Assembly: GCA_963769935.1 (NCBI GenBank)
Contig: CAVYNY010000009.1
Coordinates: forward strand, 288,001 to 352,000
Direction: 5' to 3'
Length of the DNA: 64,000 nt
Source: an uncultured delta proteobacterium
GTDB taxonomy: Bacteria > Desulfobacterota > Desulfobacteria > Desulfobacterales > JAFDCJ01
Part shown: positions 2,584 through 12,185 of the stretch, piece by piece
How positions within the stretch are numbered: position 1 is the first letter of the stretch
Layout of the letters: every line of letters begins with the position of its first letter
The notes under the pieces: model-generated
The model's database searches: none
Seen by the model: the letters and a program-made list of their open reading frames with translations, nothing else
Told to the model about the DNA's origin: nothing
Program-made: the position numbers and the translations under genes

Positions 2584-2870
2584 CCATGCTGGAGTTGATG
2601 GATAACGACATACTAACGAAGGTCTCCAGATACAATTTGATTCGCAGCCAGAGGTTGATTTATATTGACGTACATGAAAGCCTGGCCGGGAATCTGGCGG
2701 GAAAATTTGTTGCGGTTCCGAATCTGATCAATATCGTTGCCCGCCAGGTGTTTCAGGGTACCGGAAAAACCGAGACGGAAGCGTTGGAGAATTGCCTGTC
2801 CAAAATAAAGAACCACGGCATCAGCGAATTGTTCCCCACCACCGGTCCGAAAGAACCGGGGACGACCTAG
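2580..2870 (+). CDS. Hypothetical protein
   Basis: 96-aa ORF overlapping the clpS stop (GTGA); protein-like composition. Confidence 0.7.
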   Translation: MTMLELMDNDILTKVSRYNLIRSQRLIYIDVHESLAGNLAGKFVAVPNLINIVARQVFQGTGKTETEALENCLSKIKNHGISELFPTTGPKEPGTT

Positions 2871-2878
2871 CTACTTCA

Positions 2879-3301
2879 CTATTTTGATGATCTTGGGTCG
2901 GTATTCTTTTTTTTTGCCAGCTGATTGCCCCTGATTTTAACGATCAGCAAGGCGGCGCCAAAAAACGAAAACCCTGTAACGGCTGAAAATCCGGAGGAGT
3001 TGAAATTGAAATAGGAAGCCGTCTCCTGCCCGATAAAAGCACCTAAAATCAGCACCAATATGGGAAACATATAAAGCAAAAAGGTTGCCTTTAACAGAGA
3101 TCCGGTTTCAAAGCTCAGAACTATCCGGTCGCCCGCTTTGGCGCCGACGTCATTGATAACCTCCACCTCCATTTCCTCGCTGGCGCCTGAAGAATGACAG
3201 GACTCCCTGGCTGAACAACCCGCGCAGCCACCGCTTTTGACGGTTTTCACCCATGCCGCTCCTGCATCGGTTTTAATGACAACGCCCTGTTCGGTAGCCA
3301 T
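2879..3301 (-). CDS. RseC/MucC family protein (Rnf/Rsx-associated)
   Basis: EQGVVI...GCAGCSARESC...GAKAGDRIVL plus two TM helices; last codons probably shifted by an A-homopolymer (a plausible true end is KKEYRPKIIKIVK*). Confidence 0.85.
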   Translation of the reverse strand: MATEQGVVIKTDAGAAWVKTVKSGGCAGCSARESCHSSGASEEMEVEVINDVGAKAGDRIVLSFETGSLLKATFLLYMFPILVLILGAFIGQETASYFNFNSSGFSAVTGFSFFGAALLIVKIRGNQLAKKKNTDPRSSK

Positions 3302-3404
3302 TTCAGTGGTCCTTTGTGAATGAATATTGAAAATTGAAGATTGAATATTTGTGGTATGCTGTCTGTCTTATGTCGGGCTTGTTCTTTATAGAAGCAAAAG
3401 CAAA

Positions 3405-3555
3405 TAGAATGACGAACGTCGGATGTCGAATTAAAGGATACTATCTATTTTAAAAATGTATGAACCAAGATAAGTGGCGAAGCGACACGCCGCGCTGCGC
3501 GAGCGACTTCCTTTATTCGTCATTCTTCATTCGTCAATTGTCCTTCGTCATTCTA
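3405..3555. repeat. Palindromic GAATGAC-heptamer element (family C)
   Basis: TAGAATGACGAA...TTCGTCATTCTA ends; second copy at 8551-8683; supplies the stop codon of the upstream minus-strand gene. Confidence 0.75.
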
Positions 3556-5632
3556 ATGTTTCGCCGACGGCTTCCTCTTCAGCCTGCTGCGGCGGCGCTG
3601 GATGGGCATAGCATATTAATCCGCATTGCAAGCATCTTGAAGCTTCGGCTCGGGCCATTTCGCTGCTGAAGCCCCTCTCGATTTCACCGCAGGCTGCAAG
3701 CTGCCGTCCGCTGCAAATCGGCATGATCCGGCGCTGACTGGCCGCAACCGCTTCGACGTGGTCGACATCCTGCAATACGGAATGCGGTGTGATGACATGT
3801 TCGGTCAGGGACGGTCCAATTCCGTACATGATCTGCTGCACCGAGGCGGCTGCTCTTCTTCCGGCCCCGATGGCCTTGATGGCGGCACTGTAATCGGCCA
3901 GAACCTCTCCATCTGAAAACAGACCGACTTCGTCCTTGAATGCCGGCGGCTTATAGGGCGGGACGGCCTCCCATTTCAGCGGTTGATCGGAAGGCCGGTC
4001 GGTTTCACCTTCCGTTGATTTTTGCTCGACAAAGATCAGCTCCGGAAAACGCCCCGTCGCCATGATCAGGGTTTGGGCTGCAAGGGTGCCGGTTGCCCGC
4101 GATTTGGTTTCAACATACTCCAGTTGCGCCAGGCGATCTCCAATCCCGCGCAGACGATGAATCGCGGCATTATAAATGACATGCAGCCCTTCTTCAAGGC
4201 CCGCGTCTTTAACATCGGCATCGGTGATCGGGCTATTTTCCAGATCCTCGCGGAACATGAGGGTAACCTCTTGCGCACCTGCCGCCCTGCAAATGCCGGC
4301 CGCCTTCAGCGCCAGCTTGCCGCCGCCGAAAATAACCACATTCGACTGGCCGGCAAATATATCGGTACCGGCCGCCAATTTTAAAAGATCGACCATCAGA
4401 TAGGTACCGGGCACCGGCGATTCAATTTCGCTCGCCGCTCCACGCGCCATTCTGCCGTCCCAGCCGCCGGCTGCCAGAAAAACTGCTTCAAAATCCTGTT
4501 GGAGCAGCTTGTCGACGGTAAAATCCTTTCCCATGACCCGGCCGGTCTCCGCTTTGACTCCCATTTCAAGGATGCCTTCGATATCCCAGTCCAGAATCTC
4601 CCGGGGAAGCCTTTCAGCCGCAATGGCACTGCGCAATAGCCCGCCAAGTTGCGGACCCGCTTCATATACGGTAACTGCATGGCCCAGGCGGGCCGCAAAA
4701 AAGGCCGTGGACAGGCCCTCCACCCCGCCCCCGACCACCGCGATGCGGCGGCCCGAGGCCGGGGCTGCGTACGGCTGAATGCGTTCACCGCTTTCTCTTT
4801 CATAGTCGGCGGCATAGCGCTTGAGATAATTAATCGCCACGGGCTCATCGATGAAATTGCGCCGGCATTCCAGTTCGCAGGGACGGGGACAAATCCTGCC
4901 GATAATCGCCGGAAAAGGATTGCGCTCTTTAATGACCTGAACCGCACGATGATAATTCCCGAGAGAAATTTGCCGGATGTATTCGCGAATGTTGATGCCG
5001 GCCGGACAGCCCCGCTGACAGGGCGTGGTGCATTCCTCGGTCGTATACTCGCGCATGATGCGGCGGGTTACGGAAGACAGATTAATGATGTGTTTGGGGC
5101 AAACCCTTTCACAGGTACCGCAGCCGGTACATTTATCTTCAATCACCACCGGCAGTCCTTCGGGCCCCATGACAATCGCTTTAAAAGGGCAGGCTTTGGC
5201 GCAGGTTCCCAGCCCCAGGCAGCCGATGGTGCAAACTTTCATGCCGCCGCCCAGCAGGGCGACGGCCCGGCAATCATCCAGGCCGTCATAGACATATTTC
5301 GTATCGGCAGCCTGAACCCCGAAATAGCAGCCGGGTCGGGCAATATCCGGCTCTTTGGCCTCGATTTTAACTCCCATAATTTCGGCGATGGCTCCGACCA
5401 CTTCGGCACCGGCCGCGACACACGAATTGGGCGCTGAAATTCCGGACACGATCGCTTCGGCATTGGCGCTGCAACCCGGCAGCCCGCAGCCGCCTCAATT
5501 CGCGCCCGGCAGCGCGCCTTCGACGGCCTCTACCTTGGGATCAACATATACGTAAAAAAGTTTCGATGCCAGAGCGAGAACGGCACTGATGATCAGTCCC
5601 ATGCCTCCCATCAAAATAAGCGCTGTGGTCAT
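3548..5632 (-). CDS. RnfB-like membrane-anchored polyferredoxin fused to GltD/NfnB-like FAD oxidoreductase; probable selenoprotein (TGA at codon 46)
   Basis: ATG at 5632 with GGAG RBS: MTTALILMGGMGLIISAVLALASKLFYVYVDPKVEAVEGALPGAN*GGCGLPGCSANAEAI is in frame with ORF 3548-5449; CTIGCLGLGTCAKACP, CTGCGTCERVCP, PCQRGCP, GRICPRPCELECRR, Rossmann motif, EASRCLQCG. Confidence 0.88.
5465..5494 (-). promoter_or_regulatory. Candidate bacterial SECIS hairpin
   Basis: Directly 3' of the UGA (5497-5495): GGC-G-GCUGC-GGGCU-GCCG-GGUU-GCAGC-GCC stem-loop with a G-initiated apical loop. Confidence 0.6.
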
Positions 5633-5731
5633 TTCATACTCCCGAATCGGATATAATTGGTGTCATGTCCTTTATATAATTTACAAAACATGGGTTGAAT
5701 TGACAATGCTTTCTTCTCCATGATTTCGTAT

Positions 5732-5958
5732 AAATTCCAAATATCAAATCACAAATTACAAATAAATATCAAATCACAAAACTCAAATTCAAAACACTTC
5801 TTAGTTTTCAGCGAATCAAGTCCATTCGACTGACTCTGATAAGCTTCATTCTGCCTGAGTTCAAACCGAAGGAACCACTTGGCTGCGAGTCAAAACCTGT
5901 TTGGGTCATTGGAGCTTGGATATTGTTTGTTATTTGTTTTTTGGTGCTTGGAATTTTT
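5732..5958. repeat. Palindromic heptamer-like element (family D)
   Basis: AATTCCAAATATCAAATCACAAATTACAAA... left arm, ...TTGGTGCTTGGAATTT right arm; related copy at ~14211-14420. Confidence 0.65.
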
Positions 5959-6037
5959 TATACTCAAAGAATCAACTATAGTATAGCTATCCAGTTTCAC
6001 TTTTTTAACATATTTGTGGGAGGCAACACTCTCTTTG

Positions 6038-6110
6038 TCCACCATCCAGCATCCACCATCCAGCATCCACCATCCAGCATCCAGTATCCAGTATCCAGTA
6101 TCCAGCATCC
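6038..6110. repeat. Heptamer tandem repeat (ATCCAGY/ATCCACC), about 10 units
   Basis: ccaccatccagcatccaccatccagcat...ccagtatccagtatccagtatccagcat. Confidence 0.9.
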
Positions 6111-6112
6111 CG

Positions 6113-7900
6113 TCAGAAAATCGCATCAAACTTGCACTTCTCAAAACAGGTCATGCATTGGATGCATTTTTCTTTATCGATCCAGGCAACCTCTTTCTTT
6201 TTCCAGACAATGGCATCGGCCGGGCAGCTCCGGAAACAAAGCCCGCATTTGGTGCACATGTCCGGATTGACTTCAAATTTCAAGAGCGCCGTGCAGCGCT
6301 TGGCCGGACATCGTTTTTCATAGATATGGGCCTCATATTCGTGCCGGAAGTAGCGCAGGGTGGAAAGCACCGGGTTGGGTCCGGTCTGGCCCAGGCCGCA
6401 CAAGGCGGTTTCCTTGATGGCGGCCGAGAGCTCCTCCATGGTTGTCAGATCATCCGGTTCCCCCCGGCCTTCGCAGATTTTTTCCAGCAGCTGCAAAAGC
6501 CGTCGGGTGCCCTCACGGCAGGGAGTACACTTGCCGCAGGACTCATCCTGCACAAAGTCCATGAAAAATCGGGCCATGTCCACCATGCAGGTGTTCTCAT
6601 CCATAACAATGGCCCCGCCGGAGCCCATGATGGCCCCCACTTTGGCAATGGCTTCGTAATCAACCGGTGTATCCAGGTGCTGCTCCGGAACGCAGCCCCC
6701 GGAAGGACCACCGAGCTGGACCGCCTTGAATTTTTTCTTGCCGGGAATACCGCCCCCGATATCATAGACAATGGTTCTGAGGCTTGTTCCCATCGGCACT
6801 TCTACCAGACCGATATTATTAATATCGCCGGACAGAGCGAAGACCTTGGTTCCTTTGCTGCTTTCGGTGCCGACGCTGGCATACCACGCCCCTCCTTTTA
6901 AAATAATCTGGCCGATATTGGCCAGGGTCTCCACATTGTTTAAGACGGTCGGCTTCTCCCACAGTCCCTGATGGGCCGGAAACGGCGGACGGGGCCGCGG
7001 CATCCCGCGCTTGCCCTCGATTGACCGCATCAAAGCCGTTTCTTCGCCGCAAACAAAGGCACCGGCTCCCTGATAGATATTAATATCAAAATCGAAGCCG
7101 GTTCCCAGAATATCTTTGCCCAGCAGTCCGTAGTCCCTGGCCTGTTTGATGGCGATTCCCAGCCGGCGGATAGCCAGGGGATATTCCGTCCGGGCATATA
7201 TGACGCCCTGATGGGCATCAATAGCTCTGGCGGCAATAATCATCCCTTCCAGAACCGCATGCGGATCGGCTTCAAGGACGCTGCGATCCATAAAGGCACC
7301 GGGATCACCTTCATCCGCATTGCACAGCACATATTTGATATCTCCCGGACTCCGGCGGGCAAACTCCCACTTTAATCCGGTTGGGAAGCCGGCACCGCCG
7401 CGCCCTCTGAGCCCCGAAGTTTTTACCTCTTCGATGATCTGCTCGGGAGTCAACTCCTGCAACGCTTTGGCGGCTCCGAAGTAGCCGTCCCTGGCAATGT
7501 ATTCCTCAATCACCTCCGGATCGATGAGTCCTTTGTTCCGCATTACCCTGAACATCTGGTTGGCAAAAAAAGGAATTTGCGCCATATTCGGGATGGTTTC
7601 TTTGGAAGTGGGCTCCTTGTAAAACAACTCTTTAACCGGGCGGCCTTTTAGGAAATGCTCTTCTACCAGATGGGGAACATCTTCCGCTTTCAGCTTCTGA
7701 TAAAAAATGCCTTCGGGCTGAACCAGCATGACCGGCCCGACGGCACAAAAGCCGTTGCAGCCGGTTTCAATGATCTTGATCTCCTCGGCCAGCCCTTGCC
7801 GCTCGAGCTCCTGTTGAAGTGTTTCCGCAAATTTTTTTGTCCCACTGGCATGACAACCCGTACCGCCGCAGAGCATCAAATGGGTTCTAACCTTATTCAT
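6113..7900 (-). CDS. NuoF/HndC-like NAD(P)H-binding flavoprotein subunit
   Basis: N-terminal Trx-like 2Fe-2S domain, SGLRGRGGAGFPTG, NADEGDPG, GAFVCGEETAL, ESCGKCTPCREG, C-terminal 2x[4Fe-4S]; RBS AGGAGA before ATG 7900. Confidence 0.95.
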   Translation of the reverse strand: MNKVRTHLMLCGGTGCHASGTKKFAETLQQELERQGLAEEIKIIETGCNGFCAVGPVMLVQPEGIFYQKLKAEDVPHLVEEHFLKGRPVKELFYKEPTSKETIPNMAQIPFFANQMFRVMRNKGLIDPEVIEEYIARDGYFGAAKALQELTPEQIIEEVKTSGLRGRGGAGFPTGLKWEFARRSPGDIKYVLCNADEGDPGAFMDRSVLEADPHAVLEGMIIAARAIDAHQGVIYARTEYPLAIRRLGIAIKQARDYGLLGKDILGTGFDFDINIYQGAGAFVCGEETALMRSIEGKRGMPRPRPPFPAHQGLWEKPTVLNNVETLANIGQIILKGGAWYASVGTESSKGTKVFALSGDINNIGLVEVPMGTSLRTIVYDIGGGIPGKKKFKAVQLGGPSGGCVPEQHLDTPVDYEAIAKVGAIMGSGGAIVMDENTCMVDMARFFMDFVQDESCGKCTPCREGTRRLLQLLEKICEGRGEPDDLTTMEELSAAIKETALCGLGQTGPNPVLSTLRYFRHEYEAHIYEKRCPAKRCTALLKFEVNPDMCTKCGLCFRSCPADAIVWKKKEVAWIDKEKCIQCMTCFEKCKFDAIF

Positions 7901-7958
7901 TCTTTTCTCCTGCAATTCAATTACCAGGAACCATCACGTCCTCTGAGACCGTTTACTT

Positions 7959-8453
7959 CTATTTGTACTTTTCAAGGGTCTCTACAACCTTGTCGGCCTT
8001 AACACCGCCATAGGTGTCCTGATCCACCACCATCACAGGCGCAAGGCCGCAAGCTCCCAGACACCTGACCGCTTCCAGCGAAAACCGCCGATCCTCGGAG
8101 ACGCCGCCCCCTTTCAGGTCGAACTTGTTTTCGATACGGCCGATAACCTCCTTGATGCCCTTGACGTAACACGCCGTTCCCATGCACACCTTAATTATAT
8201 GGCGGCCTTTGGGCTCAAATGAGAAAAGGGCGTAAAACGAGGCGACACCGTAAACTTCGCTGCTGGAAAGATTGAGTCCGTAGCTGATATAATCAATCAG
8301 CTCGACAGGCAGATATCCAACGACATCCTGACATTCCCGCAAAACGCCGATGACCGATCCGGGGATATCCCGGTTAGCGGCGATAATCTCATCGATTTTA
8401 GTCCACATATCATTTTGGATATCAGGATGCTGGGGATGAATGTCATAAGTCAT
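7959..8453 (-). CDS. NuoE/HndA-like 2Fe-2S subunit
   Basis: VASFY...VCMGTACYVKG...VRCLGACGLAPV. Confidence 0.95.
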   Translation of the reverse strand: MTYDIHPQHPDIQNDMWTKIDEIIAANRDIPGSVIGVLRECQDVVGYLPVELIDYISYGLNLSSSEVYGVASFYALFSFEPKGRHIIKVCMGTACYVKGIKEVIGRIENKFDLKGGGVSEDRRFSLEAVRCLGACGLAPVMVVDQDTYGGVKADKVVETLEKYK

Positions 8454-8512
8454 GCATAACCTCCGGTTGATGAGTGATGACCTGGTCGGGGGATAAAAAA
8501 ATTAAACGTCGC

Positions 8513-8541
8513 AATATCACATAAGCGCATATAAATGTCAA
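8513..8541 (-). promoter_or_regulatory. sigma70 promoter of nuoE-like operon
   Basis: TTGACA-17 bp-GATATT on minus strand. Confidence 0.55.
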
Positions 8542-8550
8542 CGGACCCTC

Positions 8551-8683
8551 TGGAATGACGAACGACGATTGACGAATGCAGAACGGTGGAAATCGCTTCG
8601 CTCAGTCATCTAAATTTATGGAGCACTTTAAAATGGTCAGAATGCCTTAATTCGTCATTTTACATTTGTCATTCGTCATTCCA
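8551..8683. repeat. Palindromic GAATGAC-heptamer element (family C)
   Basis: TGGAATGACGAA...TTCGTCATTCCA. Confidence 0.75.
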
Positions 8684-8705
8684 AAGGTTCGTCATCCGTA
8701 CTTCC

Positions 8706-10531: not shown

Positions 10532-10882
10532 ATGGGCAACATGACGGTAAATGATCTCGTGGCACGTTTTGACCTGCAGGTTGCGGCCGGTGAAAAAGGC
10601 CTTGAACGTAAAATCGCAGACGGCTACTGCGGCGATCTGCTCAGCGAAATAATGGTCAATGCCCCCGAAGGCTGTGTCTGGTTGACAATTCAGGGACATC
10701 AAAACATTGTGGCGGTCGGCGTCCTGCGTGAAATGGCCGGCATCATCATAACCGGCGGCCGGACACCGGATGATGAAACCCTGCACAAGGCAAATCAGGA
10801 AGGCATTCCTATCCTGCTTTCGCCCGACTCGGCCTATCAACTTGCAGGGCAGCTGTATGCCATCGGAGTGGGCAATCCTTAA
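10532..10882 (+). CDS. DRTGG domain protein
   Basis: GYCGDLLSEIM...VWLTIQGHQNIVAVG...IIITGG. Confidence 0.9.
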   Translation: MGNMTVNDLVARFDLQVAAGEKGLERKIADGYCGDLLSEIMVNAPEGCVWLTIQGHQNIVAVGVLREMAGIIITGGRTPDDETLHKANQEGIPILLSPDSAYQLAGQLYAIGVGNP

Positions 10883-10897
10883 GAAAGAGAATGACGA

Positions 10898-11242
10898 ATG
10901 ACGAATGTCGAAGATACTCTGAAAAAATACAAGGCCGACCTGCACATCCACAGCTGTCTATCGCGCTGCGCGGATTGGGATATGAGTCCCAGACCGATTA
11001 TCCAAAGAAGTCAGGAAGTGGGGCTTGATTTAATTGCGATCTGCGATCATAATACAGCGAAAAATGCCGAGGCAGCCGTGCGCGAAGGCCAAAAAAAGGC
11101 CTTCACGTTCCGCCGGGCATGGAAATCCGCTTTTATTGAAGACCTTGGAAAGGTGTGGACCGTATTCCGGATGGCGGGGCCCACCGTCGAAGAGGTCCGC
11201 CAATCATTATTGCAACTTGACGGAAGGAGGAATGTGGTCTGA
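10898..11242 (+). pseudogene. PHP domain protein with large internal deletion
   Basis: ADLHIHSCLS, IAICDHNTA, then (shifted frame) GLHVPPGMEI joined directly to the C-terminal FIEDLGKVWTVF; central PHP motifs missing. Confidence 0.75.
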
Positions 11243-11824
11243 TTGCATGAGCTGTCACTTCACATTCTGGATATTGCCGAAAACGGCATTACCGCCGGGG
11301 CCGACTGTATTCAAATTCTGATCAATGAAAATCGAAAGGAAGATTTACTGACGATTGCCATTACGGACAACGGACGAGGTATGCCGGCTGAAAAACTCAA
11401 AAACCCCACCGACCCGTTTATTACTTCCCGCACGACCCGCAAGGTAGGAATGGGTCTGTCGCTGCTGGCCGCAGCGGCCGAGCGATGTGACGGAAGGCTT
11501 GCAATTGAGACTGAAGCCGGCCGCGGGAGCCGGGTTACGGCCACCTTCCGCTACACTCATATTGATCGCGCGCCCGTCGGGGATATGGCCGTAACGATAA
11601 CGACCTTAATTATGGGAAATCCGCGGGTTGATCTTGTTTACCGCCACATTATCGACGCCGAGGAATTCATGCTGGACACCAGGGATCTCAAAGAGGGATC
11701 GGCGGACAATTCCCTGGCGGATCCGGTCATCCTGCATCATTTATCCCAAAGTATCCGCAATTCTCTCAACCGGCTGGCATTAAAAGACGGCACGTCTGAA
11801 CCAACGGAGGATAGTCATGGCTAA
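11243..11824 (+). CDS. HATPase_c ATP-binding protein (hnd-cluster type)
   Basis: ELSLHILDIAENGITAGA, DNGRGM, DPFITSRTTRKVGMGL, HIDRAPVGD. Confidence 0.9.
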   Translation: MHELSLHILDIAENGITAGADCIQILINENRKEDLLTIAITDNGRGMPAEKLKNPTDPFITSRTTRKVGMGLSLLAAAAERCDGRLAIETEAGRGSRVTATFRYTHIDRAPVGDMAVTITTLIMGNPRVDLVYRHIIDAEEFMLDTRDLKEGSADNSLADPVILHHLSQSIRNSLNRLALKDGTSEPTEDSHG

Positions 11825-12185
11825 ATTAACAATTGATGATTTGAAAAAAATAAAGGCGGAAACCGCCAAGAGCACTTCCCTGCGTGATGGTGCAGCCAAT
11901 GTAAAAATCACCGTTCACATGGGAACCTGTGGCATTGCCGCCGGAGCGCGTGGGGTGATGAACGCGCTGATGGAGGAGATGGCCCAGACCGATCGCCAGG
12001 ACATTCGGGTGTTCACATCCGGCTGCATGGGCATGTGCAGCAGTGAACCCAACGTAACGGTTGAAATTAAGGGCGCCGCACCGATTGTCTATCAAAAAAT
12101 GGAAGCCAACCGGATGCGCCAGGTGTTTAAACGGCATGTGCTTTTGGGTGAAGTCCAAAAGGACTTCGTGTTGGCGAAGAAGTGA
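11817..12185 (+). CDS. HndB-like thioredoxin-fold (2Fe-2S) ferredoxin
   Basis: ITVHMGTCGIAAGAR...SGCMGMCSSEP. Confidence 0.9.
   Translation: MAKLTIDDLKKIKAETAKSTSLRDGAANVKITVHMGTCGIAAGARGVMNALMEEMAQTDRQDIRVFTSGCMGMCSSEPNVTVEIKGAAPIVYQKMEANRMRQVFKRHVLLGEVQKDFVLAKK

Follow-up and report, generated by a model that had tools for sequence, protein, structure and literature searches.

The DNA analysed here is a stretch of 64,000 nucleotides (positions 288,001 to 352,000 of contig CAVYNY010000009.1; hereafter, the window) from an uncultured bacterium of the Desulfobacterales, and the subject of the analysis is a gene on its minus strand that encodes a membrane-anchored, 694-residue large RnfB with an in-frame TGA at codon 46. 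This codon is very probably decoded as selenocysteine (Sec), with Sec46 predicted to replace the first Cys ligand of the mobile N-terminal [4Fe-4S] cluster. The features of the gene are given below in window coordinates, where positions such as +12 are counted from the base after the TGA and bSECIS stands for bacterial selenocysteine insertion sequence.

3548..5632, minus strand: large RnfB paralogue gene, 694 amino acids, with a transmembrane (TM) anchor, an FdI Fe-S domain with predicted Sec46, a ferredoxin region, and an NfnA/GltD-like dicluster and FAD module
5639..5643, minus strand: Shine-Dalgarno sequence GGGAG, 6 nt ahead of ATG 5632
5558..5629, minus strand: predicted N-terminal membrane helix, residues 2-25 (helical in the structural model; hydrophobicity)
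5495..5497, minus strand: in-frame TGA, codon 46, predicted selenocysteine (context LPGAN-TGA-GGCGLPGC; Cys/TGA pairing in relatives)
5420..5497, minus strand: FdI cluster motif U46-x2-C49-x4-C54-x16-C71 (Pfam PF04060, at residues 41-72)
5468..5483, minus strand: stem-loop that is likely the upper part of a bSECIS (stem of 5 bp, +12..+16 with +23..+27; loop of 6 nt whose second base is G)
5447..5449, minus strand: GTG taken as a false start by standard gene calling
4787..5032, minus strand: Fer4_20 dicluster domain, residues 201-282 (domain search)
4025..4747, minus strand: Pyr_redox_2 FAD module, residues 296-536 (second nucleotide motif degenerate)

Predicted selenocysteine at codon 46

The frame from ATG 5632 to the stop codon at 3550-3548 comprises 695 codons (694 residues and the stop), with the TGA at 5497-5495 as the single internal stop. 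The start, the ribosome-binding site at 5643-5639 and the beginning of the plain open reading frame list at GTG 5449 are as read in a preliminary description of the window, and purine-rich, Shine-Dalgarno-like stretches precede the same start in most of the TGA orthologues. The TM anchor claimed in that description was borne out by the helix in the model and by hydrophobicity, the most hydrophobic 19-residue segment beginning at residue 4 (mean 2.41). RnfB has one such helix, at its N terminus (PMC9588780, in excerpt).

Codon 46 was compared among relatives by pooling 110 loci, which yielded 92 distinct orthologous loci. It was found that 33 of the 92 have TGA at this column and 59 have TGC or TGT, with no other codon present, and that none of 13 other Cys columns in the same loci contains a stop. 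A Cys orthologue (locus L068) is present in a cultured relative, Desulfatitalea alkaliphila. The codon is the first Cys of the RnfB N-terminal Fe-S motif and aligns with the first FdI cysteine of the solved RnfB chains 9ERI_B and 7ZC6_B (matched at E about 1e-51), and so the suggestion that TGA stands in place of the first Cys of the motif, with Cys/TGA pairing in homologues, was upheld. Among genomes of the same genus, TGA was present in 19 of 22 and Cys in 3 (one of them a partial gene), and one genome of another family likewise carries TGA at codon 46. Within the 33 TGA copies, the ratio of nonsynonymous to synonymous substitution rates was 0.078 for codons 5-45, upstream of the TGA, and 0.054 downstream. 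A TGA in the large RnfB of an rnf operon (L127, G053:C66) was set aside because it lies at a Gly column, not Cys, and is probably a nonsense change or an error.

Downstream of the TGA, all 33 TGA loci agree at codons +4, +5, +6, +8 and +9, whereas 0 of 66 background columns of 4- to 6-fold degeneracy are invariant. The proportion of synonymous differences over codons +4..+9 (nt +10..+27) was 0.035 relative to a median of 0.63, the lowest of 165 such segments, whereas the same segment in 33 Cys loci was ordinary (rank 70 of 150). The stem +12..+16/+23..+27 is fully Watson-Crick in 33/33 TGA loci, in 30/30 metagenome loci (found by the TGA pattern; they comprise 26 different 45-mers and may include some of the 33) and in 5/59 Cys loci. 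This stem-loop has a stem of 5-7 bp, a spacing of 16 nt from the UGA and a folding energy of -10.7 kcal/mol, within the published bSECIS limits (loop 3-9 nt, stem 4-16 bp, G among the first two bases of the loop, a distance of 16-37 nt to the UGA and minimum free energy <= -7.5; PMC13188914, in excerpt).

The preliminary description had placed the stem-loop at the base next to the TGA. The bases there do allow such a hairpin, but shuffled sequences fold just as stably and its 5′ arm varies (all pairs are possible in 31/33 TGA loci and 22/30 metagenome loci, never all of them Watson-Crick), and because it is less well kept it is probably not the functional one; the conserved stem begins at +12 (5483-5468). 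The pairing of lowest free energy, +5..+9 with +23..+27, is kept in 32/33 and 25/30 loci, below the +12..+27 stem, and was likewise rejected. Judged by conservation, it is likely that the SECIS begins at +12 and not at +1. Folding energy was dropped as SECIS evidence because shuffles fold equally well or better, and no Rfam match was found within 2800-8700.

The genome encodes tRNA-Sec, selB, selA and two selD genes (each selD with an internal TGA), and therefore all of the sel genes that the preliminary description had proposed to look for are present. The selA gene is split by three 1-nt insertions (G000:C22:678107-679400, L003); the short-read contigs of X2, X3 and X4 lack all three, and those of X1, which do not extend over the third site, lack the other two. 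Therefore, the insertions are most likely assembly errors. Matches to EF-Tu are also fragmented, indicating indel errors in the assembly, and other 'split genes' there are suspect. A scan of the genome for its own selenoproteins was noisy, and only motif-confirmed sites were retained (6 loose SelD-pattern rows were dropped); these are 17 TGA sites of known selenoprotein families, which by their motifs we take to be 5 HdrA, 4 MvhD, 3 FdhA, 2 SelD, MsrA, AhpD and Prx. Besides tRNA-Sec, ARAGORN called a tRNA-Pyl (CTA) at G000:C11:285724-285797, and the organism may use both Sec and Pyl, as has been described for marine Deltaproteobacteria (PMC8318568).

Several results weigh against decoding of the TGA as Sec or limit the evidence for it. 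The selA gene is present in 58/61 genomes of the order sample, Cys-type genomes included, and selA or selB was seen in each of the 21 TGA-bearing genomes; the machinery is thus near-universal in the order, and its co-occurrence with TGA does not discriminate. The bSECIS screen that had been suggested is passed by the +12 stem-loop, but the filter is weak, in that it also passes 32/59 Cys orthologues, 104/600 ordinary TGA stops and 140/600 Cys codons. The +12..+27 stem is invariant, and so no compensatory change supports the pairing, and no excess of hairpin stability over shuffles was found on four stretches (z +0.24 to +1.34).

Taken together, the reading of UGA as Sec is strongly supported because of the Cys/TGA pairing, the presence of the Sec machinery, the SECIS-type freeze of synonymous sites and the purifying selection upstream of the TGA, and we regard insertion of Sec at codon 46 as almost certain on these comparisons. 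Following established bacterial Sec biology, SelB carrying Sec-tRNA would bind the +12..+27 hairpin, upon which Sec would be inserted.

Origin of the predicted selenocysteine in large and short RnfB

An ortholog tree was obtained by a quick search with the Sec and SECIS columns left out. The 33 TGA rows and 2 Cys rows formed one clade (SH-aLRT, the Shimodaira-Hasegawa-like approximate likelihood ratio test, 96) in which three label changes are needed, consistent with one gain of Sec and two reversions to Cys. Both revertants retain the SECIS codons, and Sec/Cys pairs, the two revertants included, are about 86% identical across the N-terminal 190 amino acids. Same-genus Cys versions that retain SECIS codons and are likely recent reversions are L014 and L015/L037 (G016, G005), and the same-genus Cys copy L129 (G019) has lost part of the SECIS stem.

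A pattern search found TGA at this column in 6/400 other genomes of the phylum, and a second TGA group, consisting of short RnfB proteins of about 290 amino acids, was obtained from 80 fetched metagenome loci and the pattern-search loci. Short Sec-RnfB loci are L128 (G037:C76:40000-48000), L132-L136, L138 and about 48 metagenome loci; they lie in rnf operons and match a catalogued family. They encode 237-311 amino acids and lie beside rnfA/rnfE in 46 of the 48 loci with enough flank. The preliminary description had suspected that Sec-RnfB might already be listed, and for the short form this proved correct: the family (NF005503/PRK07118) is catalogued, as predicted and not experimentally verified, with a representative, WP_258165141.1, that shows U at the codon-46 column (deep-Sep supplement, PMC12013277, in excerpt). 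In both forms, U takes the place of the FdI motif's first Cys, and both have the N-terminal TM anchor. The short representative, however, is about 290 amino acids long and is encoded beside rnfA/rnfE, whereas the window protein has 694 residues and a flavin module, is encoded outside the rnf operon, and scores below the curated cut-off of NF005503 (180.6 vs 252 bits).

The short Sec group formed its own clade (SH-aLRT 99), and in the quick tree Cys lineages separate it from the large Sec clade. The short-group hairpin also differs from that of the window gene, its register being shifted by one base (pair sum 40, as against 39 for the window gene), and the stem of each group cannot be formed by the other (0/33 and 0/55). 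Therefore, two origins of Sec are favoured, and from these patterns Sec in large RnfB was probably gained independently of short RnfB. The alternative, that Sec at codon 46 and Sec in short RnfB go back to one event (ancestrally, or by transfer with the N-terminal domain), is the less probable of the two but deserves consideration. An approximately unbiased (AU) test in which short Sec, large Sec and the two revertants were constrained to one Sec clade did not reject it (p=0.107), and the sample is without Cys sisters of the short Sec clade. An earlier AU test (p=0.002) was discarded as unfair, the two revertants having been left outside the constrained group. A single origin would have to accommodate the nesting of the large-Sec clade among Cys orthologues and Cys Rnf2 paralogues, as well as the two incompatible stems.

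Architecture of the protein and alternative readings of codon 46

The window protein passes the RnfB subfamily model TIGR01944 (87 bits vs a cut-off of 68.7) and has the features of an RnfB subunit, namely, the N-terminal TM helix, the FdI motif and a downstream ferredoxin domain (a ferredoxin dicluster near residues 137-185). The C-terminal module is closest to the NfnA/StnC flavin domain, both by sequence and by fold. The preliminary description had called the protein an RnfB-NfnB/GltD-like fusion; the fusion was confirmed and corresponds to the known Rnf2-type large RnfB, but the C-terminal module is nearest to NfnA/StnC and its NADPH pocket is degenerate. Specifically, the window protein has GGGKLA at 436-441 and FRE at 460-462, whereas its paralogue in the rnf operon has GGGNTA and YRR. 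The second nucleotide motif varies among 66 sequences, 56 of which have Glu in place of the second Arg. NADPH binding has therefore likely been lost, as far as these motifs can tell, and a switch to NADH instead is conceivable.

In the AlphaFold model (mean predicted local distance difference test score, pLDDT, 75.8), the flavin module was confident and the Fe-S linker region weak. The residues C49, C54 and C71 were invariant in the 66 sequences, and the position of Sec46 in the motif makes it very likely, given insertion, that it is a ligand of the FdI cluster. According to a proposal made for Rnf, the FdI motif binds a [4Fe-4S] cluster that is mobile and moves across to the iron of RnfAE (PMC9588780, in excerpt). 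By comparison with the RnfB structures, U46, C49, C54 and C71 would bind the FdI cluster, which would serve as the electron shuttle linking the soluble Fe-S chain with the iron site of RnfAE, and it is likely that Sec tunes the FdI cluster. Set against a ligand role are the low confidence of the FdI-FdII region of the model (pLDDT <50 at 88-116) and the fact that the FdI cluster was not resolved in the Clostridium tetanomorphum structure but inferred there (PMC9588780, in excerpt). According to a 2026 review, Sec has, apart from a few enzymes, been predicted as a metal ligand on the strength of Cys homologues, and such predictions have still to be confirmed directly (PMC13188914, in excerpt).

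Alternatively, Sec could be inserted without being a stable iron ligand, and instead contribute to a UxxC motif a selenol that is redox-active or exchangeable, as a redox switch or in protection of the exposed cluster, possibly in a SoxR-reducing-type role linked to RseC. Such a role of RseC, which we presume, appears only in its NCBIfam name. Among selenoproteins, UxxC is the motif usually associated with thiol oxidoreductases (PMC13188914, in excerpt), the FdI cluster was unseen in the cryo-electron microscopy map (PMC9588780, in excerpt), and the rseC gene is a constant neighbour. However, the four FdI positions are invariantly Cys or Sec within a Pfam Fe-S domain that has no thioredoxin fold, and a comparison with a corrinoid Fe-S protein led the authors of PMC9588780 (in excerpt) to argue that FdI binds a [4Fe-4S] cluster. 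We consider a non-ligand Sec improbable.

It is more improbable still that the TGA is a true stop, leaving either a pseudogene or a 45-residue anchor peptide and a soluble product that restarts at GTG 5449. Standard gene callers and public records do show exactly such a truncated product, as had been anticipated: for the TGA orthologue L038, a public protein collection contains a 629-amino acid product beginning at the GTG after the UGA, and the 629-amino acid members of its cluster are named 'FAD-dependent oxidoreductase'. (Ten truncated forms were looked up in this collection, and one, that of L038, was present.) Furthermore, the rnf operon encodes another large RnfB, intact and of the Cys type, which could make the window copy dispensable. 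However, the same TGA persists in two families, the flanking residues are invariant, including C49 and C54 ahead of the restart, the GTG is kept in only 21/33 TGA loci, and a true stop would leave the downstream synonymous freeze without a reason. Contigs from RNA libraries span the rnfB gene, but contigs of this sort cannot show transcription.

A sequencing or assembly error at the TGA has next to no probability, because although 1-nt insertion errors (selA) and fragmented EF-Tu matches occur in this assembly, 32 other distinct loci share the TGA, so that independent genomes already refute it, and contigs from four public runs span codon 46 with no difference there among those listed, which goes part of the way towards the read check that had been called for, these being contigs rather than raw reads.

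Gene neighbourhood and relation to known systems

The genes that accompany rnfB in the window, with their occurrence in an 80-locus comparison in which some flanks were too short to show neighbours such as nuoE, are as follows:

2879..3301, minus strand: rseC/mucC-family membrane protein gene, the downstream partner (beside the rnfB gene in 65/80 loci)
6113..7915, minus strand: gene for a flavoprotein of the NuoF/HydB (BfuB) type that bears the bifurcating-enzyme signatures AFM, F287 and GGPSG (upstream in 73/80 loci)
7959..8453, minus strand: NuoE/HydC (BfuC)-type 2Fe-2S protein gene (upstream in 62/80 loci)

In none of the 80 loci was rnfA, C, D, E or G found near the large stand-alone rnfB. 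The rnf operon lies on contig C22 in the order rnfB-cytochrome-C-D-G-E-A (from ORF starts); its own large RnfB has Cys and intact GGGNTA and YRR motifs and is 39% identical to the window's RnfB over the full length, the two being paralogues. A single rnfA/E pair was found in the genome. Three further genes with the PF04060 Fe-S domain are at C13:164485, C16:126511 and C17:115852, and a second rseC homologue is at G000:C13:648316-648702. In loci L062 and L064, a 2Fe-2S thioredoxin-like gene directly before nuoF replaces nuoE.

The NuoF-like protein is a full-length homologue of HydB/BfuB, and its AFM, F287 and GGPSG motifs were invariant in 51 sequences; AFM, the Phe and GGPSG are signatures of bifurcating enzymes (PMC12018979, in excerpt). 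Because the NADPH pocket of the fusion itself is degenerate and its gene has a near-constant position behind the nuoE/nuoF pair, a role as an alternative B subunit is proposed, in which the RnfB paralogue would wire the NuoE/NuoF (BfuC/BfuB) NADH/ferredoxin module to the single Rnf core found in the genome. This is a weaker step than the reading of codon 46, and we consider it a reasonable possibility, somewhat short of even, that NuoEF is linked to the Rnf core by this alternative RnfB. Sec would be optional for this function since the Cys orthologues keep the same module. A point against co-transcription is that 480 nt with repeat-like DNA and promoter-like matches lie between nuoF and rnfB.

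Short intergenic repeats flank rnfB; the one at 3320-3370 recurs in about 95 similar copies genome-wide and the one at 5880-5990 in about 30. Sigma-70-like promoter matches were located on the minus strand at 8541-8513 (before the nuoE-like gene) and 5706-5678 (before rnfB), the region containing 15 promoter-like matches vs 5 expected from shuffles. On the plus strand at 10532-12185 are DRTGG, PHP, HATPase_c and 2Fe-2S thioredoxin-like genes, a set usually met next to operons for bifurcating hydrogenases; the PHP ORF, of only 114 amino acids, looks frameshifted.

The architecture of the window protein, an RnfB head fused to a flavin module, resembles that of the Rnf2 large RnfB of the Desulfobacula toluolica Tol2 type. 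A large RnfB of about 700 amino acids has been described for D. toluolica and D. multivorans (PMC5109826, in excerpt, citing Woehlbrand et al.). The window protein differs in belonging to a separate paralogous clade encoded outside the rnf operon, with NADPH motifs that are degenerate across the 66 sequences and Sec in one sub-clade, whereas the Rnf2-type operon copy of this genome has Cys and intact nucleotide motifs. Its neighbours resemble the Bfu family (NfnABC/StnABC; 9N5U, 9BOV, 8OH5), the NuoF- and NuoE-like genes being full-length BfuB and BfuC homologues and the BfuBC-core signatures being present. There are also differences: no BfuA-type subunit is seen among the genes of the module, and the partner is membrane-anchored and RnfB-headed, its complex with BfuBC being putative. 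BfuA-less type 4 Bfu enzymes have been described without an RnfB partner (PMC9304861, in excerpt).

No paper was found on Sec in a large RnfB paralogue or on a nuoE-nuoF-rnfB-rseC module, in a search outside of which some supplementary tables of PMC8318568 lay, and the main text of PMC2398784 does not mention 'Fe-S' or 'Rnf'. A narrow search likewise found no paper on the potentials of [4Fe-4S] clusters with a Sec ligand. Both the position of Sec and the large RnfB architecture are already in print, and so nothing here is categorically new; what sets this case apart is Sec in a stand-alone large paralogue with its own SECIS register and, probably, a separate origin. As a tentative and, in its entirety, doubtful proposal, nuoE-nuoF-rnfB(large)-rseC might be an undescribed, membrane-anchored, BfuA-less bifurcating input of the Desulfobacterales that connects NADH and ferredoxin to the Rnf2 ion pump by way of an alternative B subunit, in which the Sec ligand of the shuttle cluster was gained independently with a different SECIS.

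For this uncultured Desulfobacterales bacterium, the result is a well-supported prediction of a selenoprotein gene that is commonly mis-annotated. The usual annotation trims the gene to about 630 amino acids, with loss of the membrane anchor and three of the four FdI ligands, and therefore, in Desulfobacterales from sediment, its product is mistaken for a soluble oxidoreductase. The RnfB family provides close natural Sec/Cys pairs in a small domain, including the two revertants with SECIS codons. If the independent gain is true, the same Fe-S ligand would have been switched to selenium twice, and the pairs could be used for measuring the effect of selenium on a [4Fe-4S] cluster whose sole task is electron transfer. 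The module, if it functions as proposed, would link Bfu and Rnf2, two energy-conserving systems of sulfate reducers.

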